The notes beneath the pieces were generated by a model. It worked only from the letters and a program-made list of their open reading frames with translations. It was not told the origin of the DNA and did no database searches. From Deltaproteobacteria bacterium GWC2_65_14 (GTDB lineage Bacteria > Desulfobacterota > Deferrimicrobia > Deferrimicrobiales > Deferrimicrobiaceae): a DNA stretch of 64,000 bases. How positions within the stretch are numbered: the stretch's first letter is position 1; every line of letters starts with the position of its first letter. The DNA lies in NCBI GenBank assembly GCA_001797615.1, contig MGPV01000017.1, positions 50,019 through 114,018 on the forward strand, read 5' to 3'. This document shows positions 16,148-53,090 of this stretch, piece by piece. The position numbers and the translations under genes were made by a program.

Positions 16148-16786
16148 TCAATCCGCCGAAAGGATTTCGTACCCCGCCTTTTTCAGGGCCGCCTTGAGCA
16201 CCTTGTAGTTCTTCGTCTCGAGCCGCAGGATCAGGGTCTTCATCCCCGGCTCCGCGTGGGCGGCTGTCGCCACGGAGACGATCTTGGTTTCGAAGTCCTT
16301 GAGCAGTTTCGTCACCTCGAACAGCATGCCGATCCTGTCGGGCAGCCCCAGCTCGACCCGGTAGCCCGGCCCGCTTACCCCCATCGACTCGATGAAGGCG
16401 TCCAGGATGTCGGTCTCGGTGAGGATCCCGACCAACTTCCCCCCCTCCACGACCGGGAGGCACCCGATCTTCTTCTCCCGCATGATCAGCGCCGCCTCCT
16501 CGATCGGGGCGGACGGGGATATCGTGTAGGGGCGCCGGGTCATGATCTGCCGGGCCTTGACCTTGTCGAGCAGGTAATAGATCTCGCGGATTTCCAGGGA
16601 GGTCGCGGAGGAAGGGGAGGCCTGCTTGATGTCCCGCTCCGAGAGGACCCCGACCAGTTTCTCCCCGTCCTTCAGGACGCAGAGGTGGCGGATCCCCCGC
16701 TCCTTCATGATGTCCATCGCCCTTCGCATCGAGTCGTTCTCGTCCACGACCACCGGGTTCCGCGCCATCCGCCTCGCAACGATCAT
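16148..16786 (-). CDS. CBS-pair plus ACT domain protein.
   Basis: The real start [17 protein letters not shown] has an AGGAGG RBS. It has two CBS motifs (..[23 protein letters not shown].. and ..[21 protein letters not shown]..) and a C-terminal ACT-like region. The upstream part of the track ORF is Gly-rich junk. Confidence 0.75.
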
Positions 16787-16827
16787 CGAAGGGTCCTCCT
16801 GAAGGGTTTTCCCGCCGTCTCTTCCGG

Positions 16828-17424
16828 TCAGGTGAAGTAGCGCCGCACGAGATCGATGGCGCTTATCAGATCCGAGGCCGTCACCAGAAAGAAGGAGGCC
16901 CCCTCCTTTTCCCAGTACACGAACGACATCCCCTCCTTCTCTCCGGAGAGGAAACCGGAGCCGGAGAAGAGGTCCTCCTCGTCCTGGCCCCCCGCCCGGG
17001 GCCGGTTCCGGAGCACGAGAAGGAGATACGAATTCCCGAATCCCGAGAAGCGGACGGCGGCGGCCGTCTGCCTCCCCACCTTCTCCCGCCGGACGGAGGA
17101 GACGGAGAACACCCCCTCCTCCCGGGGAAGCAACAGCTTCGCCCCCGTCCACTCATTCACCTTCGCCTCGGCGTCGGCGGGAGCGAGGGGGGGCGCTCCC
17201 TCCTTCTCGAGGTTCGCGGCCCCGTAGAGCCGCATCCCCTCCCGCGCCAGGAGGTCGACCCGGGCATGCCCCGTGTCCCGGGAGATGCGCACGGCGAAGA
17301 CGGCGACCGTCATGGTCAGGAAGAGCAGGACGACGGCCAGGCGCGGCCGATCGCTCACCAGGCCGAACAGGGAGGTCGTCTCGGATTTCCCCCGGTCCGG
17401 GCGTTCACCGGTCGATCCATTCAT
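16828..17424 (-). CDS. Hypothetical membrane-anchored protein.
   Basis: 198 aa with one N-terminal TM helix (LAVVLLFLTMTVAVFAV) and a C-terminal soluble domain; no recognisable motif. It could be an anti-sigma factor or periplasmic regulator, but that is only a guess. Confidence 0.45.
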   Translation of the reverse strand: MNGSTGERPDRGKSETTSLFGLVSDRPRLAVVLLFLTMTVAVFAVRISRDTGHARVDLLAREGMRLYGAANLEKEGAPPLAPADAEAKVNEWTGAKLLLPREEGVFSVSSVRREKVGRQTAAAVRFSGFGNSYLLLVLRNRPRAGGQDEEDLFSGSGFLSGEKEGMSFVYWEKEGASFFLVTASDLISAIDLVRRYFT

Positions 17425-17474: not shown

Positions 17475-19346
17475 CTACCAGTCCACGATTTCCACACCGA
17501 ACCGCCGCATCAACTCCCGGGTCTTGGTGTGGATCTTCCCGCGGACGAGGATGGCCGCCCGGATCTTCCGCCCGCCGAGGTATTCCGCCGAGGTGAGAAA
17601 GGTCCCCGTGACCCGGACCTCGAACCCCGCGCCCTCCCCTCCGAAGAGGAGAAACCGCTCCCGATCCTCGTGGGGGGTCCCGGAGACTCCGAGGATCCGC
17701 CGGAAGATCGATCTCCCCCCCTCCTCCTTCCCCACGGAGAAGATCTCGTACCCCGAGTCCCGTACGATCGACCGCAGGGGAGGGGACATCTTTCCCGCGT
17801 CGACCACGTACCGCTTCCCCCCCGCATCGAAGATCCTCTCCGGCTGGACGGTGAGCTGGAAAGCACCTCCCTTTCCCCCGATCGTGATCTTCTCCTCCGA
17901 GGCGATGTGAAGCCCCAGAAAGGAGAGGGTGTAGTCGACCGCCGCCAGCCCCCCTTGCGGCACCGCCTCCGGGGCGGCTTCCGGCTCCGTCTCCTCGGCG
18001 TCGATCCCGACCAGGAATCCCTCACTGGCGGAGCGGTCCACGGCAAACGGCAGGACCCGGATGCCGATGTGCCCCGCGTACCGGAGGACCGCGGAGAGAT
18101 CGTCCCCCGGCTTCTCGGAGACCTCCTTGAGCAGGAAGACCTCGCCGTTGAGCAGGCTCTGCGGCGTCTTCAGCACGATCCGGTCGGCGGGGACGGCGAT
18201 GGCGAGCTGCTCCCCGATGACCAGCGGATGCTCCTTCCCTTCCCTGGCGGAATGGTACCCGGCGGCCTTCAGGAACCGGTCCAGCATCTCCAGCGGACCG
18301 GAGCTTCCCCCCATCGAAACCACCCGGTAGTTCTTCCAGGTCTCCGTGATCAGCGCCCGCACGTCGGCGGGGAGCCCGTCGTGAAAGTCGACCAGCAGGT
18401 CCACCCCCGTGGAAAGGCGGACGACCGGATAATCCCCGAGGTCGAGGACGACCTCCCCGCCGGTCGGGATGGGAAGATACAGGGTGCCCCGGTCGATCCA
18501 CTTCTCCCCCAGTCCGGCGGCCAGGTCGGAGAGCAGACCCCGGTACACCGGCTTCGCCGGGGCGGGGGGAACCTCCTTCGCCGGCACTCCGGCCGTGAAG
18601 GCGATCAGGGATCCCGCTTCCGGGGTCGGCAGCGAAGGCGACACGAGCTGGGCCTCCGGCTTCGCCGCCGGGATCGCCTCCTGGCCCGGCTGCGGCGGGA
18701 CATCCCGCGTCAGCGCCACCGCCGAAGCCGGCGCCTCCTCCGGTTTCCTCTCCGCAGGTTCTGCGGGGGGCGCCGCGGCCGCCAGCGGGCCGGGGAATGG
18801 AGCGGCTGCGACGGAAGGGGCTTCCGCGAAATACTCGGCGGTGGGAATCAGGATCGTTGTTCCGGCATAGATCCGGTCCACGTCGCGGACCGGCTCGTTC
18901 AGCTCCATCACGGCCGAGAGGTACCGCTCCCTGTCCTCCCGCGGGACTCCGCGCGCGGCGAGGATCTTCAGCAGCGCGTCTCCGCGGACGATCCGGTGGG
19001 GGACCGCTTTCCCGGATTCCACCATCCGCCGGACCTTCGCGGCCGCCCCGGAGGGGATCAGGATCTTCTGCCCGGGCGAAAGCTTCCCGGGATCCCGCAC
19101 CTCCGGGTTCGCCCGCCGGAATTCCCGGAGCGCCGCGGAATAGTTCGACGGAAAGAGCGGGGAGATTCCCTCCAGGATCTTCCAGAGGTTCTCCCCCTTC
19201 GAGACGGTGTGGACCTCGTAGAAGCTCTTCTTTCCCTCCGAGGTCTCCGCGAAGATCCTCTTCTCCAGGAAGATCTTCGGCCTCTCCTCCGCCTGTACCG
19301 CCGCCACGACAAGGCAAAGCGCGGCGACGACCGCCCCTCTTCTCAA
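17475..19346 (-). CDS. Secreted LysM-like / peptidoglycan-binding repeat protein with a Pro/Ala-rich linker and a C-terminal domain of unknown function.
   Basis: The probable TTG start is at 19346 (LRRGAVVAALCLVVAAVQA signal peptide, GGGAGG RBS). Two LysM-like segments (YEVHTVSKGENLWKIL and HRIVRGDALLKILAARG) are followed by a P/A/E-rich linker and a ~330-aa C-terminal domain. The N-terminal 160 aa of the track ORF is Gly/Arg junk. Confidence 0.55.
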   Translation of the reverse strand: MRRGAVVAALCLVVAAVQAEERPKIFLEKRIFAETSEGKKSFYEVHTVSKGENLWKILEGISPLFPSNYSAALREFRRANPEVRDPGKLSPGQKILIPSGAAAKVRRMVESGKAVPHRIVRGDALLKILAARGVPREDRERYLSAVMELNEPVRDVDRIYAGTTILIPTAEYFAEAPSVAAAPFPGPLAAAAPPAEPAERKPEEAPASAVALTRDVPPQPGQEAIPAAKPEAQLVSPSLPTPEAGSLIAFTAGVPAKEVPPAPAKPVYRGLLSDLAAGLGEKWIDRGTLYLPIPTGGEVVLDLGDYPVVRLSTGVDLLVDFHDGLPADVRALITETWKNYRVVSMGGSSGPLEMLDRFLKAAGYHSAREGKEHPLVIGEQLAIAVPADRIVLKTPQSLLNGEVFLLKEVSEKPGDDLSAVLRYAGHIGIRVLPFAVDRSASEGFLVGIDAEETEPEAAPEAVPQGGLAAVDYTLSFLGLHIASEEKITIGGKGGAFQLTVQPERIFDAGGKRYVVDAGKMSPPLRSIVRDSGYEIFSVGKEEGGRSIFRRILGVSGTPHEDRERFLLFGGEGAGFEVRVTGTFLTSAEYLGGRKIRAAILVRGKIHTKTRELMRRFGVEIVDW

Positions 19347-20128
19347 TATCCCTCCCCAGTGAACGTCGACACTCCGGCGTTCACCCCGATCGTCTTGTAC
19401 ATCTTCGGGCTCTCCCACGGCTCGTCCAGGATTCCGTCGTGGATGGCCCAGCTCCTCCCGCGCACCGTCGCCCCCTGCCCCGGCATCCGGAAGGGGGTGC
19501 TCCCGTCGAGCCTCCCGTGCAGCAGTCCGCCCGGACGGAACTCCCGGTCGGTCCGGACCATCCCCTCTTTCCCGGTAAGGTACTGGAACCCGCTCCTCTC
19601 GTACAGGATCGCGCTGGTGTAGCCCAGCGGCTCCAGGAAGAAGAACCGGTGCCCCAGCTTCCCGAAGAAGGCTTCCCAGCTGGCGACCAGGTCCGGCATG
19701 GCGCGCAGACCGCGGCGGACCTGTCCGGGCGCCAGGCCGTCCCGCATCGCCCGGATCTCCTCGGGGAGGTTCCTCAGGGCGGTCCCGAAGTAGGTGTCCC
19801 GCCCCCCCTCGTCCACGTCCACGTCGTACCGTCCGCTCTCCGGATCGTTCACGATGACGAACGAGATCTCCATCTGCCCGTAGGGCGTGCTCGACACGTC
19901 GAGGAAGTAGACGGCGTCCCGGTCCTCCGGGGTCCGGTGGAATTCCACCTGGAAGAAGGGCATCCCTTCCGGGCAGGTGAAGGAGACGCACCGGTTTCCT
20001 CCCGGCCCCCGGAACGTCTCCGGGTCTACCGAGAACCTCTCCAGGAGCCGGCGCGGGACCAGGGTGGACAGAAGCGCCTCACGCTCCCCCTCCGGCAGGG
20101 CGTTGATCTCGTACGCCGTAACGGGCAA
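19343..20128 (-). CDS. Hypothetical protein (261 aa), co-operonic with the acyl-CoA ligase; possibly an acyltransferase-like fold.
   Basis: The ORF has normal codon usage and is tightly packed, 9 nt after the ligase stop and overlapping the downstream start. I found no confident motif. Confidence 0.5.
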   Translation of the reverse strand: MPVTAYEINALPEGEREALLSTLVPRRLLERFSVDPETFRGPGGNRCVSFTCPEGMPFFQVEFHRTPEDRDAVYFLDVSSTPYGQMEISFVIVNDPESGRYDVDVDEGGRDTYFGTALRNLPEEIRAMRDGLAPGQVRRGLRAMPDLVASWEAFFGKLGHRFFFLEPLGYTSAILYERSGFQYLTGKEGMVRTDREFRPGGLLHGRLDGSTPFRMPGQGATVRGRSWAIHDGILDEPWESPKMYKTIGVNAGVSTFTGEGY

Positions 20129-20136
20129 GGGGGAGA

Positions 20137-21930
20137 TCAGCCCTTCTCATACAGGGAGTCGAGCAGGTGACCGTACTTCTGAAGGATCACCTTGCGCTTC
20201 AGCTTCAGCGTTGGAGTCAGCTCCCCCGTTTCCAGCGTGAAATCGGTCCCGAGCAGCACGAACTTCTTGACCTGCTCGAAGGAGGCGAGCTGCCGGTTCA
20301 GCTCCTCGATCCGGGCGCGCATCCTCTCCTCCACTTTCGGGTGCTTCGCCAGCAGGACCGGATCCTGTTCTGCGATTCCGTTCTGCGCCGCCCATTTGGC
20401 GACATCCTCGGCCGACAGGGTGATCAGGGCGGTGATGAAATGTTTCCGGTCGCCGTAGGCGAAGGCCTGGCTCACGAACGTGTCGGTCTTCAGCAGGTTC
20501 TCGATGTTCTGCGGGGCGATGTTCTTCCCCCCCGAGGTCACGAGGATGTCCTTCTTCCGATCGGTGATCGTGAGGAACCCCTCGGAGTCGAGGACCCCGA
20601 TATCCCCCGTGTGGAGCCACCCCTCCGCGTCGACCGCCTGCCGCGTGGCCTCCGGGTCCCGGAAATATTCCTTGAACACGTGGGGACCGCGCACGAGGAT
20701 CTCCCCGTCCTGCGCGATCCGGATCTCGGTGCCCGGAAGCGCCTTCCCCACGGTCCCGAACTTGTAGCGCTCGATCCGGTTCACCGTCGTGACGGTGGAG
20801 TCCTCCGTCAGCCCGTACCCCTCCAGGATGAGCACGTCCATGGCATGGAGGAACTCCGCGACCTCCCGGGCGAGCGGGGCGCCGCCGGAGATGAAGAAGC
20901 GCAGCCTGCCCCCCATCCGCTCCCGGATCTTGCCGAACACCAGCTTGTGGGCAAGGGAGTACTTCCCCGCCAGGAACCCCCCCACCGCCTCTCCCCGCTG
21001 GCGGCGGCGGGACACCTCGCGTCCGACCCCGAGCGCCCAGTGGAAGATCTTTTTCTTGAGCCCCCCGTCCTCCTCGACCTTGGCCAGAACGCGGGCATAG
21101 AACTTCTCGAAGAGCCTGGGGACACTGACCATGATCTCCGGCCGCACGAGCGCAAGATCCTCCCCCACCGTCAGGATGCTCCGGGCGAAGGCGGAGACCG
21201 CCATTACGTCGAAGGTGAGGAAGTGCTCCAGCCGGCCGAGGGAGTGTGCGAGGGGGAGGAACTGCAGGAGCGTCTCCCCACGGCGCACCGTGACCGCGTC
21301 GACCGCGGAGGTGACGACGAAGGCATAGTTGCTGTGCCGCGTGACGACCCCCTTCGGGGGGCCGGTGGTCCCGGAGGTGTAGATGACCGTCAGGTCGTCC
21401 TCCGGCCGGATCTCCGCGGTCCTCCGGTCGAGCGCGCCGGGATGCTCCCTGGAGAATTCCCTCCCCTTCTCCCGGAGCCCGCCCAGCCCGATCGTCCCCG
21501 TCCGCCCTTTCGGATCCCCCGTGAGCAGGACGACGGTGGAGAGGTCCGGGAGGTTTTTCCTCGCCTGGTCGACCTTGCTCCACTGCTCCTCGTCCTCGAC
21601 GAATACCAGCCGGGCCCGGGAATTCGCCAGGATGTACTCGACCTGATCGGGAAGGTTGGAAGGATAGATCGGCACGGTGACGAACCCTCCAAGGATCCCG
21701 GCGATATCGGACAGGCACCACTCCAGCCGCGTGGTCGACAGGATCGCCACCTTGTCCTCCCGGGAAAGGCCCAGGGCGAACAGGCCGTTCGCCATCTCCC
21801 GGACCGCGGTGCCCACCTCCCGGTAGGTCGTCGGCTCCCACTTCCCCTCCCGGGGAACGAGGTAGCGGACCGCGTCCCCCCCCTCCTCGATCCGGTTCAG
21901 GAACATCCGGTTCAGCGTGCCTTCCTTCAT
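20137..21930 (-). CDS. Long-chain-fatty-acid--CoA ligase (AMP-dependent synthetase/ligase).
   Basis: 597 aa with the AMP-binding motif IYTSGTTGPPKGV, a GYGLTE-like core and a C-terminal conserved Lys region. Confidence 0.88.
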   Translation of the reverse strand: MKEGTLNRMFLNRIEEGGDAVRYLVPREGKWEPTTYREVGTAVREMANGLFALGLSREDKVAILSTTRLEWCLSDIAGILGGFVTVPIYPSNLPDQVEYILANSRARLVFVEDEEQWSKVDQARKNLPDLSTVVLLTGDPKGRTGTIGLGGLREKGREFSREHPGALDRRTAEIRPEDDLTVIYTSGTTGPPKGVVTRHSNYAFVVTSAVDAVTVRRGETLLQFLPLAHSLGRLEHFLTFDVMAVSAFARSILTVGEDLALVRPEIMVSVPRLFEKFYARVLAKVEEDGGLKKKIFHWALGVGREVSRRRQRGEAVGGFLAGKYSLAHKLVFGKIRERMGGRLRFFISGGAPLAREVAEFLHAMDVLILEGYGLTEDSTVTTVNRIERYKFGTVGKALPGTEIRIAQDGEILVRGPHVFKEYFRDPEATRQAVDAEGWLHTGDIGVLDSEGFLTITDRKKDILVTSGGKNIAPQNIENLLKTDTFVSQAFAYGDRKHFITALITLSAEDVAKWAAQNGIAEQDPVLLAKHPKVEERMRARIEELNRQLASFEQVKKFVLLGTDFTLETGELTPTLKLKRKVILQKYGHLLDSLYEKG

Positions 21931-22065
21931 GACCTCTCCTTGGAGGGCGGGGATCCCCCCGTCCTCATCGTCACTCGTATTCCACGGCGAGCGTCACCGT
22001 GTTGCTCCGCCTTCCCATTCTGGTTGTGCCCGCCTTGCCCTGCCGGCAGCATCTCCCCCCCGCCG

Positions 22066-23781
22066 CTACCGGAAAAAGGGAAGGATATCATCGTATGCTA
22101 CCATCCCCCGCCCAAGCAGTTCCCGCACGGACTGGAAGGCGGGGTAGAGATGCTCCTCCGTGAGCTGTTCGACCGTCCGCTCGACCGGAAGGCCCGCGAG
22201 CAGAAGGCTCTGCACCCCGTGGGAGAACGGCAGCGCTTCCGCCAGCGCGATCTTCCCGGAATATCCCTTCCCGTCGCAGCGGTCGCAGCCCGCCGGCATG
22301 TAGAACGAGGTCTTCCGGATGATCTCCTCCAGCATCTCCCCGCGCTTCCCCCCGCCGGGAAGAAGGGAGGGCTTCGCCGGCACCGTGCGCCGGCATTCGG
22401 TGCACAGGAGGTCCACCAGCCGCTGGTGCAGGATGAGGCGCACCGTGCGGAAAAGCAGGAACGGGTCGACAGGGAGCGACAGGAGGGTGCGGACCACGTC
22501 CCCGACCCCGGACCCGCGGACGCCGCACAGGACCGGGACACCCTCGCGGACGAGGTGGACCAGCTCGATCAGGTCCGAGGAGTCCCGCAGAAATTCCACC
22601 ATCAGGGCGTCCGGCTCGACCGCTCCGGCCAGCTGCGCCCACCGCCCCCCGTACCGGGTTTCGAGATCCCTGCGCTCCAGCTGGATGTATCTCTCGGTGC
22701 GGAACCGGAACCGCTCCTCCACGGTCACGACGCGGGCGCCCGGGCGAACCATTTCCCGGAGCATGGCGAACATCGTGGTGGCGGCCCCCTCCGGTCCGGG
22801 GGTGGAAAGCAGGTAGAGACCGTCCTTCTTCCCCAGCAGCCGGCAGGTGATCTCGACCTGTTCCGGCGCCAGCCCGACCGAATCGAGGGTGGCGGCGGGC
22901 CGGAATTCGGGCAGGTGCCTCACGATCGCCTCGGGCCCGGAAAGGCCGTGGAGAAAGAGCAGCTGGAAGGAGAGAACCCCGTCGGAGCCCTCCAATTGGA
23001 AGGTAGACTCCGACCCTTCCGCGGGGATCCCGGGAAGCGCGGCGAGCTCCGCCAGCCCCCCGAGCAGCGCCCCGCGGTACCGGATCGGCATGGAGAACAG
23101 AAGGGCGTTCTCCCCCTCCGCGCGTCCCGAGACCCGGACCCGATTCCCGGCGGGGAAGATCCGGACGCTTGAAATACCGCCTCCCACGGCGAAGGAGAGG
23201 GTTTTCTCCACGAGCGTCCTCGCCCTCCCCCGGGCGAGCCATTCCGCGGCCTGCCCGCGGTCCACGAGACCCCCTTCCAGCTCCTCGGATGCGGGCGCCT
23301 GCAGGTTCGGGTAGAGCCGGTCGAGGATCCGGTTGATCGTCCGGGGCGGACAGACCACGAGCCGGATGCTCAGGCCGGTTCCCTGCCCGATGACGGAAAA
23401 GACCGGGTGAAGGAACGGGTCGGCCACCGCCAGGGTCAGCCGGTCTTCCTCCCGGGAGAGCGGCGCGATCCGGTATTCCCGGGCGGTAGATTCGGGGACG
23501 AATTCGGACATTGCGAGAGGCACCGCGGCCGGATCGATGTCCTCGAACGCCAGTCCCAGCGATTCGGCGAGGAGGAAGCTCCTGGCGTCCGGGTGGAGGA
23601 TTCCCTCCAGCAGCGTCGCCTCGAGAAGAGGGACCCCCCTCCTCTCTCCGGCCATCTTGAGATGTTTCAGCGACTCGGGGGAGAGATACCCCAGTTTCAG
23701 AAACATTTCCAGGATTTCCGTCTGGGAAACACCCAACTCGGGCCGCCTCTGCGCGGACCGTTCCGGAACCCTGCCGGGCAT
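22066..23781 (-). CDS. GspE/PilB-family protein with an N-terminal MshEN-like (c-di-GMP-binding type) domain and a C-terminal zinc finger, but a degenerate Walker A; likely a pseudo-ATPase.
   Basis: The probable start is MPGRVPERS. The N-terminus ILEMFLKLGYLSPESLKHL...LLEATLLEGIL fits the GspII_E N-terminal/MshEN pattern. The C-terminus has CTECRRT...CDRCDGKGYSGKIALAE, the tetracysteine motif of GspE. Where GPTGSGKT is expected the sequence reads LLSTPGPEGAATTM. Confidence 0.65.
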   Translation of the reverse strand: MPGRVPERSAQRRPELGVSQTEILEMFLKLGYLSPESLKHLKMAGERRGVPLLEATLLEGILHPDARSFLLAESLGLAFEDIDPAAVPLAMSEFVPESTAREYRIAPLSREEDRLTLAVADPFLHPVFSVIGQGTGLSIRLVVCPPRTINRILDRLYPNLQAPASEELEGGLVDRGQAAEWLARGRARTLVEKTLSFAVGGGISSVRIFPAGNRVRVSGRAEGENALLFSMPIRYRGALLGGLAELAALPGIPAEGSESTFQLEGSDGVLSFQLLFLHGLSGPEAIVRHLPEFRPAATLDSVGLAPEQVEITCRLLGKKDGLYLLSTPGPEGAATTMFAMLREMVRPGARVVTVEERFRFRTERYIQLERRDLETRYGGRWAQLAGAVEPDALMVEFLRDSSDLIELVHLVREGVPVLCGVRGSGVGDVVRTLLSLPVDPFLLFRTVRLILHQRLVDLLCTECRRTVPAKPSLLPGGGKRGEMLEEIIRKTSFYMPAGCDRCDGKGYSGKIALAEALPFSHGVQSLLLAGLPVERTVEQLTEEHLYPAFQSVRELLGRGMVAYDDILPFFR

Positions 23782-23928
23782 CAAGGATGTGCGCGGCCGG
23801 GACGCGGCAATGCTTGACAGCCGGCTGCCTCCAGGAACAGGCCGCCTGTTTTTTTCAACTTTATTAAAAAGACGTGGGAAAGTAAAATGTTTCCTGACTG
23901 ACGAAAACGCGCGGATCTGGAGAAGGGA

Positions 23929-24852
23929 TTGCACCGTAAGGGTCGGGTGTTGCTGTTGTGCCTGTTGGCGCTAACCCTCGCCACGGAAGGCTGTGTCGTC
24001 GCCACCTCCCGGTTCGACGCGAAGGTCCGGGAGTCGGACGCCCTTCGGGACGCGCTGGCCTCCGTGAACCGGGAGAAAGGCGCCCAGGAGGCGCGGAACG
24101 AGGCGCTGGCCAGGCAGGTCGCCGGGGAAAAGGACGCCTCGGAGCGGTGCGCCGCCCGCACGGCGGCACAGGAGGAGGAGCTCCGGAAACTCCGGGCGGA
24201 GTTCACGGAGACCAGCAGGAACATCGAGGGAACCCGGATCACGCGGGAGACGTTCATCACGGAGCTGCTGGAAAAGGAGAAGGGAAGCGGGAAGCGGATC
24301 CAGGAGCTGAGCGCCAGGGCGCTCGCCTGCGAATCGGAGCGGGAAACGGTTCTCCGGGAATCCGCATCCATGAAGCAGAAGATCGAGGAGCTCGCGAACA
24401 AGGCGGCGGAGACGCCGGCCCTGATCGCCCTCCGGCTGGAAAGGGACATCCTCCTCGGCCGCGTGGAGCGCCTGTCGGAGGAGAAGCGGCTGTCGGAAAA
24501 ACGGCGGACGGAACGGCTCGAGGCCCTCGTCCGGGAGATCGCCGCGATCTCCCCGGAGGTAACGGCGTCCTCTGCGGGCCCGGCCCTGCGCCTCCTGGTT
24601 CCCGGGAAGGTGCTTCTGGGGAAGGGAAAAACCGCGCTATCGGACGTCGGCAAGGAGTTGATCGGGAGGATCGGAAAGGCGGCCTCCGAGTTTCCGGGAG
24701 CGTCGGTCATCGTGGCAACGGACGGAAGACCGGCGGCGGACGAGATCCTGGCGCTGCTGGCCCGCGAGGGAAATATTCCCGGGGGGCGGATTCTCGTGGA
24801 CCCGGGAGGAAGGGAGAAGGGGGCGACGGAGCTGCTCCTTGTCGCGCCGTGA
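23929..24852 (+). CDS. Lipoprotein with a long coiled-coil region and an OmpA/MotB-like C-terminal domain.
   Basis: Lipobox LLALTLATEGC, then ~180 aa rich in E/R/K/A with heptad character, then a C-terminus (LLVPGKVLLGKGKTALSDVGKELI...VIVATDGRPAADE) weakly resembling OmpA_C. Confidence 0.5.
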   Translation: MHRKGRVLLLCLLALTLATEGCVVATSRFDAKVRESDALRDALASVNREKGAQEARNEALARQVAGEKDASERCAARTAAQEEELRKLRAEFTETSRNIEGTRITRETFITELLEKEKGSGKRIQELSARALACESERETVLRESASMKQKIEELANKAAETPALIALRLERDILLGRVERLSEEKRLSEKRRTERLEALVREIAAISPEVTASSAGPALRLLVPGKVLLGKGKTALSDVGKELIGRIGKAASEFPGASVIVATDGRPAADEILALLAREGNIPGGRILVDPGGREKGATELLLVAP

Positions 24853-27813: not shown

Positions 27814-28473
27814 ATGTACGTCGCCAGAAGGATGCACCGAAACGTCGTCACGGCATCCCCCGGAGACTCCCTCCGGGAGGCCCGCGAGAGGATGCAGAGG
27901 AGGAATGTCCGCCAGCTGCCGGTCGTCTCCGCCGACGGGACGCTTGTGGGGATCCTCTCCGACCGCGACATCCGGGAGGCAATCCTCCCGGTCCGTTTCC
28001 TGCCGGGAACGACGGAGGAGGATCTGGAACGGATGCTCTCGGAGACCCCCGTCGAGAGGGTGATGACGCGGAAGGTGGTCACCGCGACGCTGCACGACGC
28101 CCTGGAGGACGCCATTGTCCTGCTCGCCGACTTCCGGGTGAACTCCCTGCCGGTCGTGGACGGAACGGGAAGGCTGGCCGGAATCCTCACCCGCGGGGAC
28201 GTTCTTCGGGCCTGCATCCAGGCGATGGGGGTCGGGGAGATCAGCTCCCGCCTCGAGGTCCTGGTTCCGGACAGGCCCGGGGCGCTCGCGGATGTCGTGG
28301 CGATCATCAAGACCTTCCACGTGAACATCATTACGGTCCTGACCGCAGGCCCCGCGGGGGCGGGGATGCGGACGATCTACTTCCGGTTGAGCACGCTGAA
28401 CGTGGCGCCGATCCGGAAGGCGATCGAGGAGGCGGGGTTCCGGGTTCTCGACCCGGGCTCCTTCATGCCGTGA
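27814..28473 (+). CDS. acuB: CBS-pair plus ACT domain protein (AcuB-like).
   Basis: 219 aa with two CBS domains (VRQLPVVSADGTLVGILSDRDI and VNSLPVVDGTGRLAGILTRGDV) and a C-terminal ACT-like domain. It is immediately downstream of the acuC-like gene, mirroring Bacillus acuBC. Confidence 0.75.
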   Translation: MYVARRMHRNVVTASPGDSLREARERMQRRNVRQLPVVSADGTLVGILSDRDIREAILPVRFLPGTTEEDLERMLSETPVERVMTRKVVTATLHDALEDAIVLLADFRVNSLPVVDGTGRLAGILTRGDVLRACIQAMGVGEISSRLEVLVPDRPGALADVVAIIKTFHVNIITVLTAGPAGAGMRTIYFRLSTLNVAPIRKAIEEAGFRVLDPGSFMP

Positions 28474-38220: not shown

Positions 38221-38702
38221 TCCCGGACCCGCTGCCAGCGCGACGACAGGTCCAGGAACAGGAAGACGGCGACCAGGGAGGTCCAGGCGATCCGGACCGT
38301 CTCCTTCCACCCCCAGAGCAGAGAGAAGATCCGGGCGCCGGAAAGGTGCATCAGCAGAACGATCGAGAAGGACTCGACGGAGAGCAGCCCCGCGGCGACC
38401 GCCAGAACGTGCAGCTCCGACCGGAAAAACACGCGCAGGCCGATCTCCCGGGAGAGGAAATAGAGCGCCATCGACGCGAAGAAGAACGATCCGGGAGGGG
38501 CGCCGACCGTCAGTTCCCGAAACAGGGCGGGGGGCAGGGCGACGAGGAACCCGAGGGGCCCCTGGAGGAACAGACCCGCATAGACGATCGCAAGGAACGA
38601 GAAGTCCGGGAGAAGGTACCAGGGAAGCAGGCCGGACAGCAGCCAGACATTTGCGGCGGTCCCGGCGAAGGAGATCGCGAGCAGCGCAAGGACGGGCTTC
38701 AC
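38217..38702 (-). CDS. mreD: Rod shape-determining protein MreD.
   Basis: 161-aa polytopic membrane protein between mreC and mrdA. It has a GTG start overlapping the mreC stop (GTGA). The rest of the 433-aa track ORF is artefact. Confidence 0.72.
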   Translation of the reverse strand: MKPVLALLAISFAGTAANVWLLSGLLPWYLLPDFSFLAIVYAGLFLQGPLGFLVALPPALFRELTVGAPPGSFFFASMALYFLSREIGLRVFFRSELHVLAVAAGLLSVESFSIVLLMHLSGARIFSLLWGWKETVRIAWTSLVAVFLFLDLSSRWQRVRE

Positions 38703-39541
38703 GGGTTCGCGGCTCCGAACGGGACCGTCGGACGGGAGAGGATGACCAGGACCTCCTCGACCGCATCGAAGCGGACCACGCTCACGACCTGGATCTTCAG
38801 GAAGAGGCCCTCCCGGGGGCGGTCCACGCTGAGCACCGTCCCCAGCGGCGTTCCCTTGGGCATGATGCCGTCGAATCCCGAGAAGAGGATCCGGTCCCCC
38901 GGCGCGACATCCTGGGTGGGGGCGACATACTTCAGCCGGCAGAGGGTTCCCCCCATCCCCTCCGCGATCGCCTTCACGCGGGTTCTCTCGACGATCACGT
39001 CGGCCGCGAACCGCCCGTCCGACAGCAGGAGGACCTCGGAGTATCCCCTGTAGCTCTTGTGCACGCGGCCGACGGCGCCCTCGGGGGTGACCACGGCCAT
39101 CCCGGGGACGACGCCGCGCTCCGTCCCCGCGTCGATGAAGATCCCCTGGAACCATGGGGAGATCTCGTGGCCGATCACCCGGGCGCCGGCCGTCTTCTTC
39201 TCCACCGTCTTCGAGAAGTCGAGCAGACGTTTCAGCCGCTCGTTTTCGAGCGCGACGTCTCTCCCCTCCCGGACCTTCTCCCGGAGGGTTTCGACCTCCC
39301 GGCGGAGCTCCTCGTTCTCGCGGGAAACCCCCACCAGCGCGACATACCGTGACCAGGCCGAGTGGATCCGCTGGCGGAGGAAGTCGACGGCCGAGTAGAC
39401 GGGCCGGAAGACCTCCGCCCCGCGTCCCCGCGCCTCCTGGGCGAAGGACACTTGCGGCGGGCGCAGAAAGAGCTGGATGGCGACCGCGAGCAGCGCGACC
39501 GCCGTGAGCAGGCGCCACCAGGTGCGAAGATACCGTCTCAT
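38699..39541 (-). CDS. mreC: Rod shape-determining protein MreC.
   Basis: 280 aa with an N-terminal TM helix, a coiled-coil region (ENEELRREVETLREKV) and beta-rich C-terminal domains typical of MreC. Confidence 0.85.
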   Translation of the reverse strand: MRRYLRTWWRLLTAVALLAVAIQLFLRPPQVSFAQEARGRGAEVFRPVYSAVDFLRQRIHSAWSRYVALVGVSRENEELRREVETLREKVREGRDVALENERLKRLLDFSKTVEKKTAGARVIGHEISPWFQGIFIDAGTERGVVPGMAVVTPEGAVGRVHKSYRGYSEVLLLSDGRFAADVIVERTRVKAIAEGMGGTLCRLKYVAPTQDVAPGDRILFSGFDGIMPKGTPLGTVLSVDRPREGLFLKIQVVSVVRFDAVEEVLVILSRPTVPFGAANP

Positions 39542-43888: not shown

Positions 43889-46465
<2,577 letters not shown>

Positions 46466-46696
46466 TCCTTCCTCTCCTTGTTGTGTGATGAACGCCGTGA
46501 CGGGGGGATCTCCCCCGGAATCCGGACGAAAACGGAACGAAACCGTGCGCCGCAGGTTCCTGCCGGGCACATTAAACCGTCCTTGAATACCACGACTCCC
46601 CCCCACCGTCAAGGGGAAAACCGGCCGCCCAGACCCATTCCCGATGGAGCACACTCCGCGAAGGATGCCGGAGAGGGACCCCGGCTCGCGGGGGAG

Positions 46697-46809
46697 GGTC
46701 CCCGGTTGCCGGCGGAGCTGCCGCAGGAGGGGGGATGAGCGGAGATAAAAAGATTGATCCGCGGGCGGAGGGCGGGCGAAGCGAAGCCCCCCTCCGAGGC
46801 GGCGGAGCC
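46697..46809. repeat. ~113-nt intergenic repeat, copy B (upstream of dusB), homologous to copy A at 32040..32159.
   Basis: GGTCCCCGGTTGCCGGCGGAGCTGCCGCAGGAGGGG...GCGAAGCCCCCCTCCGAGGCGGCGGAGCC, with the same termini and orientation as copy A. Confidence 0.55.
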
Positions 46810-46866
46810 CTCTCCGGAAACCCACGAGACGGGGGCAGCGGCGCGGCGGAGTGATATAGTTGGGGG

Positions 46867-50390: not shown

Positions 50391-53090
50391 CTACCCGTAC
50401 TCCTTCGCCAGATCCTCGAACCGGGTGTAGCGGGAGATGAAGGCGAGCTCCACGACCCCCATCGGGCCGTTGCGCTGCTTGCCGATGATCACCTCGGCCT
50501 TCCCCTTCTTTTCCTCCGGGGTGTCCTCCTTCTCGTACATCTCCTCCCGGTAGATGAAGAGGATCAGGTCTGAATCCTGTTCAATTGCCCCCGAATTGTG
50601 TGAAACGACTCCGTCCGCCAGCCAGGAGGAAGGACCCGGGACGGTCAGGTCGAATACCTCCTCGGCTCCGTCCGGCCGAAGATCCGTCACACGGTCCCAG
50701 AACAGGTCGCTGGAGGCGGACCGCAGCAGCGGCTCGTCGTCCAGGATATTCGCATATTCCGCCAGCAGGGTCCGCGACGGGGCGAAATCGAGCTGCCCGC
50801 CCCCTCCGTACGCGGTACCCCGGAGCGCCGCCATATCGCGATGGGAGATCCCCCGAGCCGCCATGGCCGCCTTCACCTGGAGGAACGCCTCTTTCGGCAA
50901 CGTGTCGACATTGGGGTTGGATTCCACGAAGGCCAGTTCATTCCACAGTTGGTCCGCGGGCGCCATGCGCGGTCCGAACGCCCCCACCGTCTCGAGGAAC
51001 CGCTTCTGCTGGTCGGCGTCGGACACATCCACGGTGTACACAGGTCGGTAGTTTCCCTTCCGCACGACCCGGATCCTTGCCACGATCCCAAGCCGCACCA
51101 GCAGCGCCGCCACGTCGAGGGCGAGCCCTTCGCTCGAGGTGCTGAAGTAGACCCGCGACGATCCCTTCGCCCCCCTCGGTCGACAGTAAATGCTCCCGTC
51201 CGTCGCCCACAAATGTCTCAACAACGACGAGACCTGCTCATTATCGAACCGAAAGATCTCGGCGGGGAGCCGCTTTTCGTGAGATCGATGCCCGAAGATC
51301 CCCAATTTTCGCAGCCAGCGATTCACCCCCGCAGGATGCCACCGGTTTCCGTTCCCCCTGATGAAAAGCTGGTGCCAGTTTCCGCGCCCGCGGTAGCGGG
51401 TCACCTTCACGCCGAACTCTCTTCGCGCCGCCCCTTCGACGGCGAGGCTGTTCTCTTCCGAAGCGGTTGTGTACCGAAGAGACTGCCCGATAAGATAACT
51501 GCCGTCCCCAACGAGATGCCCCAACAGGGCGATCCGGTCCTCCGGCCAACGGACCGTGTCCCTCGGCTCCGGAACGTGTCGCGCGATGGCTATCCTGTCC
51601 CCCGGTGCGAGATCCGCCACACGCACCCAGCCGTCGGAACCGAACAACCGATGGTCGGCCGTGGCGCGTATCGTGCGGCCGCTGGCCACGGTGACCCGGG
51701 TGACCGGCCTCTCCCCGACCGACCAGACGCAATCGCTTTTCGCGGGGACGATCCGTCCTTCCGGCGACATGGCCCAGACCTCCACCGGTTTCCCGACCAA
51801 GGACCGTATCGGCGCACGGCTTCCGTCGGTGGCGAGAACAAGCGTGTCTCCCGTCACGCACTCCCTCAGGTCCGCCAACTGGGGCCGCTTGTTCTCCCGG
51901 GACTCCACCCCCCGGTTCAGCTGGGAGATCGCGATGACCGGGACGTTGATCTCCTTCGCGAGCGCCTTGAGGGAGCGGGAGATCTCGGAGATCTCCTGCA
52001 CCCGGTTCTCGTAGCCGCCGCGCGAAGAGCCTCCCCGCATCAGCTGCAGGTAGTCGACGATGACCAGCCCGATGCCCCTGTCCTTCTTCAGGCGGCGCGC
52101 CTTCGCCCGCAGCTCGAGGGCGGTGAGCGCCCCGGAGTCGTCGGTGTAGACCGGCGCCTCGGAGAGCCTCCCCACGGAGGCGACGATCCGGTTGATCTCG
52201 TCCTGGGTCAGGTACCCCGTGCGCAGCCGCTGGAACTCGACCCGCGCCTCGGAGCAGATCATCCGCAGCGCGAGCTGCTGGCGGCTCATCTCGAGGGAGA
52301 AGATCGCCACCGGGACCTTGCTCCGGAGGGCGGCGTTCAGCGCGACGTTCAGGCAGAGGGCGGTCTTCCCCATCCCGGGGCGGGCGGCGACGACGATCAT
52401 GTCGGAATTCTGGAAGCCGGCGGTCTTCGCGTCGAGGTCCCGGAAGCCGGAGGGGATCCCGGTGATCATCTCCTTCTTCTCGTAGAGCTTCTCGATCTCC
52501 TTCATCGCCTCCTTGCTCATCTCGGACATCGAGTAGTAGGAGGGCTTGATCTTCTCTTCCGCGATCTCGAAGATCGCCTGCTCGGTCCGGTCGAGGAACT
52601 CGTCGAGCTCGGTCACCCCCTCGTAGGCGGAGGCGGCGATCTGCTGGGAGACCGCGATCGTCTTCCGCAGGATCGCCTTTTCCTTGACCAGCCGCGCGTA
52701 GTCCGCCGCGTTCGAGATGGTGGGCACGTTGTGGATCAGCTCGGAGAGGTAGGCGACTCCCCCCGCCTCCTTTTCCCCGCCGCGCCCCTTCAGCACATCG
52801 GCGATCGTGAGCGGGTCGATCGCCCGCCCGCGCTCGTAGAGCTCCAGCATCGCGGAAAACAGGTTCCGGTGGGCTCCCTGGTAGAAATCCTCCGGCCGGA
52901 GGATCTCCACCACGCCGTTCATCCGGTCGTTGTCCAGCAGGACGGCGGCGAGAACGGCCTGTTCCGCCTCCAGGCTGTGCGGGGGGACTTTCAGCAGGGG
53001 GACGTCCACCGCCGGATACGGGGGTACATGCGTTCCGCTCATCGGCACCTCCCTGCACTCCCCGCGGTCCGGTCGATGGACCGCGGCCAA
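50391..53090 (-). CDS. dnaB: Replicative DNA helicase DnaB containing an in-frame intein (899-aa precursor).
   Basis: The N-terminal DnaB domain and RecA-like helicase core (Walker A ARPGMGKTA; ISQLNRGVESRENKRPQLADLRE) are followed, after the intein, by the C-extein SGAIEQDSDLILFIYREEMY. The probable real start is MSGTHVPP. My hand count of homopolymer runs near the start disagrees with the ORF track; I defer to the track. Confidence 0.9.
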   Translation of the reverse strand: MAAVHRPDRGECREVPMSGTHVPPYPAVDVPLLKVPPHSLEAEQAVLAAVLLDNDRMNGVVEILRPEDFYQGAHRNLFSAMLELYERGRAIDPLTIADVLKGRGGEKEAGGVAYLSELIHNVPTISNAADYARLVKEKAILRKTIAVSQQIAASAYEGVTELDEFLDRTEQAIFEIAEEKIKPSYYSMSEMSKEAMKEIEKLYEKKEMITGIPSGFRDLDAKTAGFQNSDMIVVAARPGMGKTALCLNVALNAALRSKVPVAIFSLEMSRQQLALRMICSEARVEFQRLRTGYLTQDEINRIVASVGRLSEAPVYTDDSGALTALELRAKARRLKKDRGIGLVIVDYLQLMRGGSSRGGYENRVQEISEISRSLKALAKEINVPVIAISQLNRGVESRENKRPQLADLRECVTGDTLVLATDGSRAPIRSLVGKPVEVWAMSPEGRIVPAKSDCVWSVGERPVTRVTVASGRTIRATADHRLFGSDGWVRVADLAPGDRIAIARHVPEPRDTVRWPEDRIALLGHLVGDGSYLIGQSLRYTTASEENSLAVEGAARREFGVKVTRYRGRGNWHQLFIRGNGNRWHPAGVNRWLRKLGIFGHRSHEKRLPAEIFRFDNEQVSSLLRHLWATDGSIYCRPRGAKGSSRVYFSTSSEGLALDVAALLVRLGIVARIRVVRKGNYRPVYTVDVSDADQQKRFLETVGAFGPRMAPADQLWNELAFVESNPNVDTLPKEAFLQVKAAMAARGISHRDMAALRGTAYGGGGQLDFAPSRTLLAEYANILDDEPLLRSASSDLFWDRVTDLRPDGAEEVFDLTVPGPSSWLADGVVSHNSGAIEQDSDLILFIYREEMYEKEDTPEEKKGKAEVIIGKQRNGPMGVVELAFISRYTRFEDLAKEYG
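50595..51860 (-). mobile_element. DnaB intein (422 aa) with a LAGLIDADG homing-endonuclease domain.
   Basis: Begins CVTGDTLVLATDGS (block A). It has two LAGLIDADG-like motifs (LLGHLVGDGSY and LWATDGSIY) and ends ...VVSHN followed by the +1 Ser. The insertion is at the classic DnaB-b site (LRE/SGAIEQD). I checked that the Cys1 codon (TGC) sits at 51858-51860. Confidence 0.85.

Follow-up and report, generated by a model that had tools for sequence, protein, structure and literature searches.

A conserved PilB/GspE paralogue of Deferrimicrobiaceae that has lost its ATPase motifs, a candidate regulator of filament machines

The 64,000-nucleotide stretch of DNA analyzed here (the window, 67% GC) comes from Deltaproteobacteria bacterium GWC2_65_14, a member of the Deferrimicrobiaceae (assembly GCA_001797615.1, contig MGPV01000017.1, positions 50,019 to 114,018 of the forward strand). 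It carries a gene for a protein of the PilB/GspE family of pilus and secretion motors in which the residues for ATP hydrolysis have been replaced; we refer to the gene and its product as pseudo-PilB. An initial annotation, made from the sequence alone, had described it as a regulatory offshoot of the secretion ATPases and as a possible receptor for cyclic di-GMP (c-di-GMP). The open reading frame (ORF) given there, 22066-23781, is real; it runs on the minus strand to a stop codon at 22066-22068 and has a third-position GC content (GC3) of 0.83, which is usual for genes of the window, but the start needs correction. A GAGG sequence is found 9 nt upstream of a TTG codon at 23736, whereas no such site precedes the ATG at 23781, which would add 15 N-terminal residues. 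Because nearly all homologues have 556 amino acids (aa) and GAGG occurs only before the TTG, we take 22066-23736 as the gene, and residue numbers refer to the 556-aa frame. The strings quoted in the initial annotation, LKLGYLSPESLKHL, LLEATLLEGIL and LLSTPGPEGAATTM, are all present in the ORF. Coordinates of all features are collected in Table 1.

Table 1. Features of the pseudo-PilB locus and of related loci. Positions are those of the window, unless a locus (L number) is given.
Feature	Position	Strand	Basis or remark
Pseudo-PilB/GspE gene	22066..23736	-	556 aa, likely TTG start; ORF, homologue length, GAGG site
N1 domain, MshEN/GSPII fold, residues 5-145	23302..23724	-	Pfam MshEN; phmmer
Degenerate remnant of both MshEN motifs, residues 7-58: EILEMFLKLGYLSPESLKHLKMAG / ERRGV / PLLEATLLE-GILHPDARSFLLAES	23563..23718	-	
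N2 domain (N2D), residues 160-285	22882..23259	-	Column counts, alignment
Arg-finger segment of N2D			Canonical RRLPQDGR replaced by variable PAEGSEST segment
RecA-like (ATPase-fold) C-terminal domain (CTD), residues 290-556	22069..22869	-	Pfam T2SSE; fold match
Pseudo-Walker A, LLSTPGPEGAATTM	22771..22812	-	Family consensus L-V-S-S-P-G-x-E-G-x-A-T-T; canonical LVTGPTGSGKTTT
Degenerate Asp box, VVTVEERFRFR	22699..22731	-	Canonical T-x-EDPVEY
Degenerate Walker B, EPDALMVEFLRD	22582..22617	-	Canonical DPDxIhVGEIRD
Degenerate His box, REGVPVLCGVRGSG, both His lost	22507..22548	-	Canonical LTGHLVFSTLHTND
Tetracysteine (putative Zn) motif CTEC...GCDRC, retained	22276..22404	-	Invariant in both alignments
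Region between divergent genes, AT-rich core	23737..23928	.	28% GC at 23850-23899
Divergent 307-aa coiled-coil protein	23929..24852	+	tblastn over 60 loci; contexts
FadD11-like acyl-CoA ligase, 597 aa	20137..21930	-	135 bp past pseudo-PilB stop
261-aa protein, divergent GNAT (acyl-CoA N-acyltransferase) fold	19343..20128	-	No Pfam match
Signal-anchored LysM protein, ~623 aa	17475..19346	-	Pfam LysM; conserved order
Tetrahaem cytochrome c of related loci	L001 11691-12485, L004 11720-12508, L005 3337-4104, L006 11708-12457, L061 4925-5689		
Deferrisomatales PilB-like genes	L057 10001-11653, L058 9917-11635, L059 9884-11650, L065 587-2236, L067 8001-9650		

Membership in the PilB/GspE family and the presence of an N-terminal domain of the MshEN family, both proposed from the start, are borne out by several independent lines of evidence. 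Pfam MshEN (PF05157) matches with 57 bits against a cutoff of 23.1, and Pfam T2SSE (PF00437) with 68.1 bits against a gathering cutoff of 24.9 (residues 270-561 in 571-aa numbering). A phmmer search of the PDB aligns the protein end to end with Thermus thermophilus PilF and Geobacter PilB (3e-30 to 9e-25), and with residues 1-150 alone it finds the PilF GSPII-C and MshEN 5htl domains (7.5e-4). An AlphaFold2 model built from 21 family sequences has a pLDDT of 82.6, and its top Foldseek matches are GspE, PilB and PilF (E 7e-26 to 1e-23, probability 1.00). The retained C-terminal tetracysteine, already recognized in the initial annotation, consists of C445, C448, C484 and C487, which are invariant both in the family alignment and in the wider family alignment. 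The gene product is a complete three-domain PilB/GspE-type protein with N1, N2D and a RecA-like CTD. It nevertheless misses the NCBIfam equivalog cutoffs for PilB (TIGR02538, 104 versus 675.65 bits) and GspE (TIGR02533, 90 versus 630.25 bits).

The architecture is that of a motor, but every class of residue needed for ATP hydrolysis has been substituted: the Walker A Lys and Gly, the Asp-box acids, the Walker B Glu, the His-box histidines and the Arg fingers. The Walker A region of the window protein reads STPGPEGAATT, in which GxxxxGK[ST] is not found. The phmmer alignment to PDB entries pairs GPTGSGKS with TPGPEGAA, tiEDPvEy with tvEErfrf, DPDIIMVGEIRD with EPDALMVEFLRD, and TGHLVIATLHTN with EGVPVLCGVRGS; at the His box, alignments set the canonical TGHLVFSTLHTN against EGVPVLCGVRGS. 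An error of frame or alignment at the P-loop was considered and rejected, as STPGPEGAATT falls opposite GPTGSGKTT in the phmmer and MAFFT alignments and in the fold model alike. With no intact P-loop recovered on alignment to the PilF and PilB structures, the degenerate Walker A of the initial annotation is not a misread register.

The losses are not peculiar to the window protein. We counted alignment columns in this protein and 99 homologues (n=100) and compared them with 18 canonical controls. No Walker A match occurs in the family alignment, and the position of the Walker A Lys, which is Lys in 18/18 controls, is V in 52, A in 18, I in 17 and G in 6 members (residues listed for 93 of the 100). 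In the Asp box, the canonical P (18 controls) has become R, Q or T, the canonical E (18 controls) is R in 84 members, and Arg346 is invariant. The position of the catalytic Walker B Glu is variable (H/S/R/N/F), with a conserved Glu one residue earlier. Asp box, Walker B Glu, both His-box histidines and the N2D Arg fingers are all replaced family-wide. The replacement residues are themselves conserved (counts per 100: S311 98, P313 99, E316 84, G317 100, T320/T321 99-100, E340 100, R346 100, E381 99, C404 98, G405 99), and together they form a new signature of SSPGxEGxATT, TVEExxRFR, EPDxLM(I/V)E and VLCGxR. We infer that pseudo-PilB is unable to hydrolyse ATP; ATP binding is improbable as well, given that its P-loop contains a Glu and lacks the Lys.

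A search of 5.8 billion proteins returned about 100 clusters of homologues with 46-97% identity, nearly all exactly 556 aa long. Where sources are named, they are Candidatus Deferrimicrobiaceae (MBNT15) or metagenome-assembled genomes (MAGs) of "Deltaproteobacteria", for example RBG_16_66_15. At the boundary of the family the scores fall from 518 bits to truncated family fragments at 397 and 257 bits, and the first canonical full-length PilB/GspE match beyond it has about 115 bits and 24% identity. A HMMER pass over 1.84 billion representatives found only two deep full-length relatives, P0123 and P0125 (27% and 24% identity), both without Walker A and with the related motifs SP(D/L)Y(S/D)GV(T/S)TT and (R/K)(F/Y)KNEGF. 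In public databases, family members are annotated as "type IV-A pilus assembly ATPase PilB", "TadA", "GspE" or hypothetical.

When one genome per GTDB species was scanned, the intact gene was found in about 50 species. The ratio of nonsynonymous to synonymous substitution rates (dN/dS; Nei-Gojobori, closest pairs) is 0.22-0.29 for pseudo-PilB and similar across all three domains, in the same range as for the adjoining ligase, GNAT-fold, LysM and 198-aa genes (0.19-0.39). By these measures, purifying selection has preserved the gene, intact and of constant length, across the Deferrimicrobiaceae (candidate phylum MBNT15/Deferrimicrobiota), and the earlier view of a conserved spin-off of the secretion ATPases rather than an accident holds, with purifying selection and not a single family member with a Walker A motif. 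Because the catalytic losses are family-wide, the replacements are conserved and dN/dS equals that of the neighbours, we regard it as very probable that pseudo-PilB is a selected pseudo-ATPase, and one that lacks the c-di-GMP motif. Loss of catalytic residues together with purifying selection across species is the combination by which a pseudoenzyme would be recognized.

The second part of this statement concerns the N1 domain. MshEN domains are defined by a 24-residue motif that occurs twice, RLGxx(L/V/I)(L/V/I)xxG(L/V/I)(L/V/I)xxxxLxxxLxxQ, whose Arg stacks on guanine, whose Gly in position 3 provides a backbone hydrogen bond, and whose Gln contacts ribose and phosphate (PMC5013675). Neither this motif nor the relaxed pattern derived from the same paper, [RKPN]hGxxhhxx[GAS]hhxxxxhxxxhxx[QNKRYWST], is matched by any of 101 family members, whereas the relaxed pattern is present in 8/18 canonical controls from the same search. 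In the window protein, RLG has become EIL in motif 1 and PLL in motif 2. In both repeats the critical residues are changed (Arg to Glu or Pro, position-3 Gly to Leu twice, closing Gln to Gly or Ser), and the second repeat has lost one residue ahead of the turn Gly. The fold and the 5-residue spacer between the two helix-turn-helix repeats are retained. The LGxxLxxxxLxxxL-type pattern from which binding had been predicted does exist in the protein, but it matches only the hydrophobic scaffold of the fold. In PilF GSPII-A, affinity drops about 30-fold on a Gly-to-Ala exchange at the motif position, a change much milder than those seen here, and binding disappears altogether with Arg-to-Ser; not every domain of the MshEN/GSPII fold is a binder (PMC12002112). 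"MshEN" is simply what Pfam now calls the old T2SSE_N/GSPII fold, and a match to it is no sign of ligand binding. To judge by sequence, the c-di-GMP ligand site of the window protein is gone, and the receptor role proposed for it is not supported.

The idea of a c-di-GMP receptor built on a dead ATPase fits another clade. The genome scan revealed three loci encoding proteins 28% identical to the window protein (L057-L059), and a follow-up search produced 24 clusters (P0389-P0412) with Deferrisomatales and Deferrisoma sp. as named sources. These proteins are 549-555 aa long and lack Walker A in 24/24 cases; several have a pseudo-P-loop VT(A/S)P(G/S)(E/D)(E/G)GxxST followed by LFALLRE. Of the full-length members, most have preserved one MshEN motif; eight have both, as in RLGAVLVEKGVITAPQLDEVLRIQ-EGSGR-RLGEVLVERGLLDEEALRWALAEQ. 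Among the five loci examined, a PilT-like ATPase is encoded near the gene in four (L058, L059, L065 and L067), a convergent MshEN-PATAN (PatA_N/DUF4388) protein between the PilT-like ATPase and pseudo-PilB in three (L059, L065 and L067), and a divergent single-domain response regulator in four (L057, L059, L065 and L067). The context of L057 differs, with a hybrid kinase and a GNAT-fold homologue. The Deferrisomatales protein is thus a probable c-di-GMP-sensing pseudo-ATPase, judged by its motifs. In a neighbour-joining (NJ) tree, the window family has 100% bootstrap support and its union with the deep branch 91%. Common descent with the Deferrisomatales clade is plausible, though weakly supported.

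Two further groups came up among the PilB-like proteins. Nine full-length proteins from unrelated branches (P0139, P0145, P0154, P0162, P0165, P0185, P0203, P0250 and P0259) are without the Walker A Lys, which is replaced, to varying degrees, by R, S, N, T, I, A or L, and inactivation of PilB/GspE motors may have happened several times. The better remote matches also included proteins of about 1000 aa with two complete PilB/GspE-like units, each with a Walker A, as in tandem-fused motors (P0126, P0131, P0132, P0144, P0146, P0149, P0160, P0163 and P0174).

The neighbourhood of the gene is as described in the initial annotation, with ligase, 261-aa and LysM genes downstream. The full order is coiled-coil, pseudo-PilB, optional tetrahaem cytochrome c, ligase, 261-aa, LysM, ~190-aa and CBS-ACT, and it holds in about 50 species of the window lineage; the deep branch (24-27% identical) shares the core as far as the LysM gene and has an additional TrmO_N gene behind the ligase. 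The ligase matches Pfam AMP-binding (2e-63) and NCBIfam FadD11 (1e-119), the latter below the FadD11 cutoff. The cytochrome has four CXXCH motifs, about 250-264 aa and a signal peptide. Its gene directly follows pseudo-PilB in deep branches and some species, overlapping its stop in L005 and overlapping or abutting it in L061, and is absent from the window and most species. The divergent coiled-coil protein has an N-terminus that, by eye, resembles a lipoprotein signal, and its homologues adjoin pseudo-PilB in most loci that extend upstream, deep branches included. It had no Pfam, NCBIfam or PDB match, and an OmpA-like C-terminus, which had been considered, received no support from these databases. 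Of the divergent AT-rich promoter region proposed earlier, the AT-rich core is real, but a scan of 21700-24100 detected neither a sigma-70 promoter nor an intrinsic terminator, so that pseudo-PilB may or may not be co-transcribed with the ligase.

The initial annotation had also stated that structural genes of type II secretion systems (T2SS) or type IV pili (T4P) do not flank the gene. This agrees with our survey: neither pilC/pilMNOPQ nor gspF/gspL is associated with it among the window ORFs scanned or assigned, or in about 55 orthologous loci. The Pfam scan covered high-GC3 ORFs at 1-11 kb, 17-25 kb and 35-64 kb, except for a few such as 38699-39541; genes at 10.8-17 kb and 25-34 kb were assigned by gene order in homologous loci only. 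The whole 20-kb region is syntenic across the lineage, unrelated housekeeping genes included. In one relative (L063 and L064, 4910-7932), only 158 bp separate the coiled-coil gene from the ligase-GNAT-LysM operon, with neither pseudo-PilB nor cytochrome between them, an arrangement that reflects either a natural deletion or the situation that preceded an insertion. The 261-aa family, with 4703 homologues, is far larger than the pseudo-PilB family. Because of the broad synteny, the L063/L064 arrangement and the size of the 261-aa family, a tight functional tie between pseudo-PilB and its neighbours is disfavoured.

Some other features of the window deserve mention. Paralogous CBS-CBS-ACT proteins of about 212-219 aa, both conserved in syntenic loci, flank the region (16148-17152, minus strand; 27814-28473, plus strand). 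An intein with a LAGLIDADG homing-endonuclease domain (Pfam Intein_splicing, LAGLIDADG_3) splits the replicative helicase DnaB (50391-53090, minus strand). The 978-aa ORF of an H+-pyrophosphatase (43889-46825, minus strand) has about 220 residues before the Pfam H_PPase match, which could be a real N-terminal extension or the result of a start called too early.

Our data suggest that pseudo-PilB is a selected pseudo-ATPase without c-di-GMP motif that, descended from a pilus or secretion motor, serves as a regulator or scaffold without catalytic activity, a reading to which we assign a probability of roughly 0.55. Of the regulatory spin-off originally envisaged, the dead and conserved paralogue stands and the c-di-GMP receptor does not, while for the function itself we infer the following. 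As a non-enzymatic regulatory or scaffold subunit, pseudo-PilB would work through protein contacts alone. It would dock, via its conserved N1 and the ring-forming surfaces of N2D and CTD, onto partners that normally engage PilB or PilT, candidates being the platform or active ATPases presumed to be encoded elsewhere in the genome. (A weak match, P0109, was considered as a canonical PilB of the same genome; it comes from an unrelated contig and is uninformative.) In the window lineage, the protein would have become independent of c-di-GMP. The old active site has undergone a charge swap, with P-loop Ser changed to Glu and Lys to Val, Ala or Ile, Asp-box Glu to Arg, and His-box His to Arg. Since this swap is conserved, we speculate that an internal salt-bridge network might replace the nucleotide and fix one conformation.

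Several observations favour a role at a filament machine. Pseudo-PilB has kept all parts of the motor architecture, among them the N1 domain (the GspL-binding domain of GspE), and in the one other clade that has a similar pseudo-P-loop, the gene is found near those for PilT and PATAN proteins. Type IV pili, but no flagella, are reported to be encoded by Deferrimicrobium genomes (PMC9386147), and M. xanthus PilB is reported to signal independently of pilus assembly (PMC5544727). Pseudo-PilB may be a regulator of pili in particular, a narrower proposal that we consider tentative, with the odds somewhat against it. Several points weigh against a regulator or scaffold of this kind. Gly314, Gly317, Thr320 and Thr321 of the P-loop remain and may still allow nucleotide binding without hydrolysis. 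The link to pili rests on the Deferrisomatales clade and not on loci of the window lineage, where no T4P or T2SS gene lies nearby (window ORFs covered and about 55 Deferrimicrobia loci), and the union of the two clades in the NJ tree has a bootstrap value of only 17%, with the long Walker-less branch P0145 interleaved. Finally, in L063 and L064 the neighbourhood of coiled-coil, ligase, GNAT and LysM genes persists without pseudo-PilB, so that the protein is dispensable at least there.

Other explanations have to be weighed against this one. That pseudo-PilB serves the neighbouring envelope module, made up of the cytochrome, which is translationally coupled where present, and of ligase, GNAT and LysM proteins, as an accessory or scaffold, for instance by organising the export or acylation of an envelope component, is unlikely in our opinion, yet it is the rival to be taken most seriously. 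Gene order is fixed in about 50 species and in the deep branch, the cytochrome gene is tightly packed against pseudo-PilB in L005 and L061, no terminator was detected between pseudo-PilB and the ligase, and L057, in an otherwise different context, has a homologue of the 261-aa GNAT-fold protein (42% identity, E 9e-62) at a distance of two genes from pseudo-PilB. However, gene order is weak evidence where 20 kb are syntenic with unrelated housekeeping genes, the cytochrome has been lost in most species including that of the window, the module persists without pseudo-PilB in L063 and L064, and the 261-aa family extends far beyond that of pseudo-PilB. Moreover, tblastn with the window protein found no 261-aa homologue in L058 or L059, and Pfam listings of the 8-kb flanks of L065 and L067 contain no such neighbour, the 261-aa family having no Pfam model. 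Very unlikely is the original model of a c-di-GMP receptor, in which the MshEN domain binds the ligand and the dead ATPase body transmits the signal. The Pfam match, the fold and the spacer would agree with it, and since the Deferrisomatales clade keeps one or both motifs the ancestor may have been such a receptor. It founders on the absence of even the relaxed motif from all 101 members, on the deletion in repeat 2, and on the replacement in both repeats of Arg, Gly and Gln, of which the Gly and Arg positions proved critical in published mutagenesis (PMC5013675, PMC12002112).

An NTPase or nucleotide-binding switch with a non-canonical site is still less probable. It would account for the former active site being the best-conserved part of the protein, with G317, T320, T321, E340 and R346 invariant in the wider family alignment, and for the conserved Glu one residue before the Walker B position. 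It does not sit well with a P-loop that has neither Lys nor Arg at the Lys position in the 93 of 100 members listed (V, A, I or G) and an acidic residue inside (E in 84/100), nor with the joint loss of Asp box, His box and Arg fingers. The least likely explanation, that the gene is decaying or that a wrong frame or alignment has produced the pattern, could point to the low Pfam and NCBIfam scores when set beside true PilB (104 bits, where the cutoff is 675). The preservation of the 556-aa ORF across about 100 sequence clusters and about 50 species, a dN/dS well below 1 and equal to that of the neighbours, a GC3 typical of window genes and a confident AlphaFold2 model speak so clearly for a maintained protein that decay is refuted.

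The reading as a non-catalytic regulator or scaffold can be extended, although we consider the extension doubtful. Deferrimicrobia and Deferrisomatales might carry hitherto undescribed "pseudo-motors", inactive PilB/GspE paralogues that would control type IV filament machines, either by taking the places of active ATPases or by joining their rings. The Deferrisomatales proteins would be c-di-GMP sensors that operate with PilT, the PATAN protein and the response regulator, and the Deferrimicrobia proteins would be ligand-independent, with a salt-bridge network in the old pocket. Deferrisoma, a genus in which the Deferrisomatales clade occurs, has cultured members, and the idea is therefore open to experimental test.

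The family is a clean and testable pseudoenzyme branch of a heavily studied group of motors. PilB, GspE and PilT have been studied as obligate ATPases, and no PilB/GspE paralogue that is conserved but catalytically dead is described in the literature that we searched, which included a recent review of PilB regulation. If our proposal is correct, evolution has turned the motor fold to a new use as regulator or scaffold, and nature provides a locked-state variant for dissecting the contacts that the N1, N2D and CTD surfaces make with the platform. There is also a practical aspect: because public annotation names the family PilB, TadA or GspE, piliation or twitching deduced from MBNT15/Deferrimicrobiota genomes may count a non-motor.

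Non-catalytic components with a nucleotide fold have precedents in type IV filament machines, for example archaeal FlaH and TadZ of Tad pili, which have structural or regulatory roles. Their folds differ (KaiC/RecA-like and ParA/MinD-like, respectively), their P-loops are generally retained, and to our knowledge neither is a PilB/GspE paralogue. Among the motors themselves, the type IVa pilus extension ATPases PilB and PilF (G. metallireducens PilB 5tsh/6olj, T. thermophilus PilF 6f8l/5oiu) are the best sequence matches, with a structural E of about 1e-25. They share with pseudo-PilB the three-domain layout and fold, the tetracysteine, the QRLV helix and a C-terminal G(Y/F)xG(K/R) segment, but differ by an identity of only about 20-24% and by their catalytic motifs, and no pil genes lie near the gene of the window protein. 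GspE (V. vulnificus 4pht, V. cholerae EpsE 1p9r/4ksr) is the top Foldseek match and has the same N1-N2-CTD organisation, from which pseudo-PilB departs by its catalytic losses, its score far below the equivalog cutoff and the absence of gsp genes nearby. The N1 of pseudo-PilB belongs to the same Pfam family and fold as the MshEN domain of MshE (V. cholerae 5htl) and the GSPII-B and GSPII-C domains of PilF, but both 24-residue motifs are degenerate at Arg, Gly and Gln. The Deferrisomatales clade resembles the window family in length, pseudo-P-loop, TVEE, HQRLVxLLC, tetracysteine and missing Walker A, and differs from it in sequence (28% identity), in keeping canonical MshEN motifs and in its neighbourhood of signalling and pilus-related genes.

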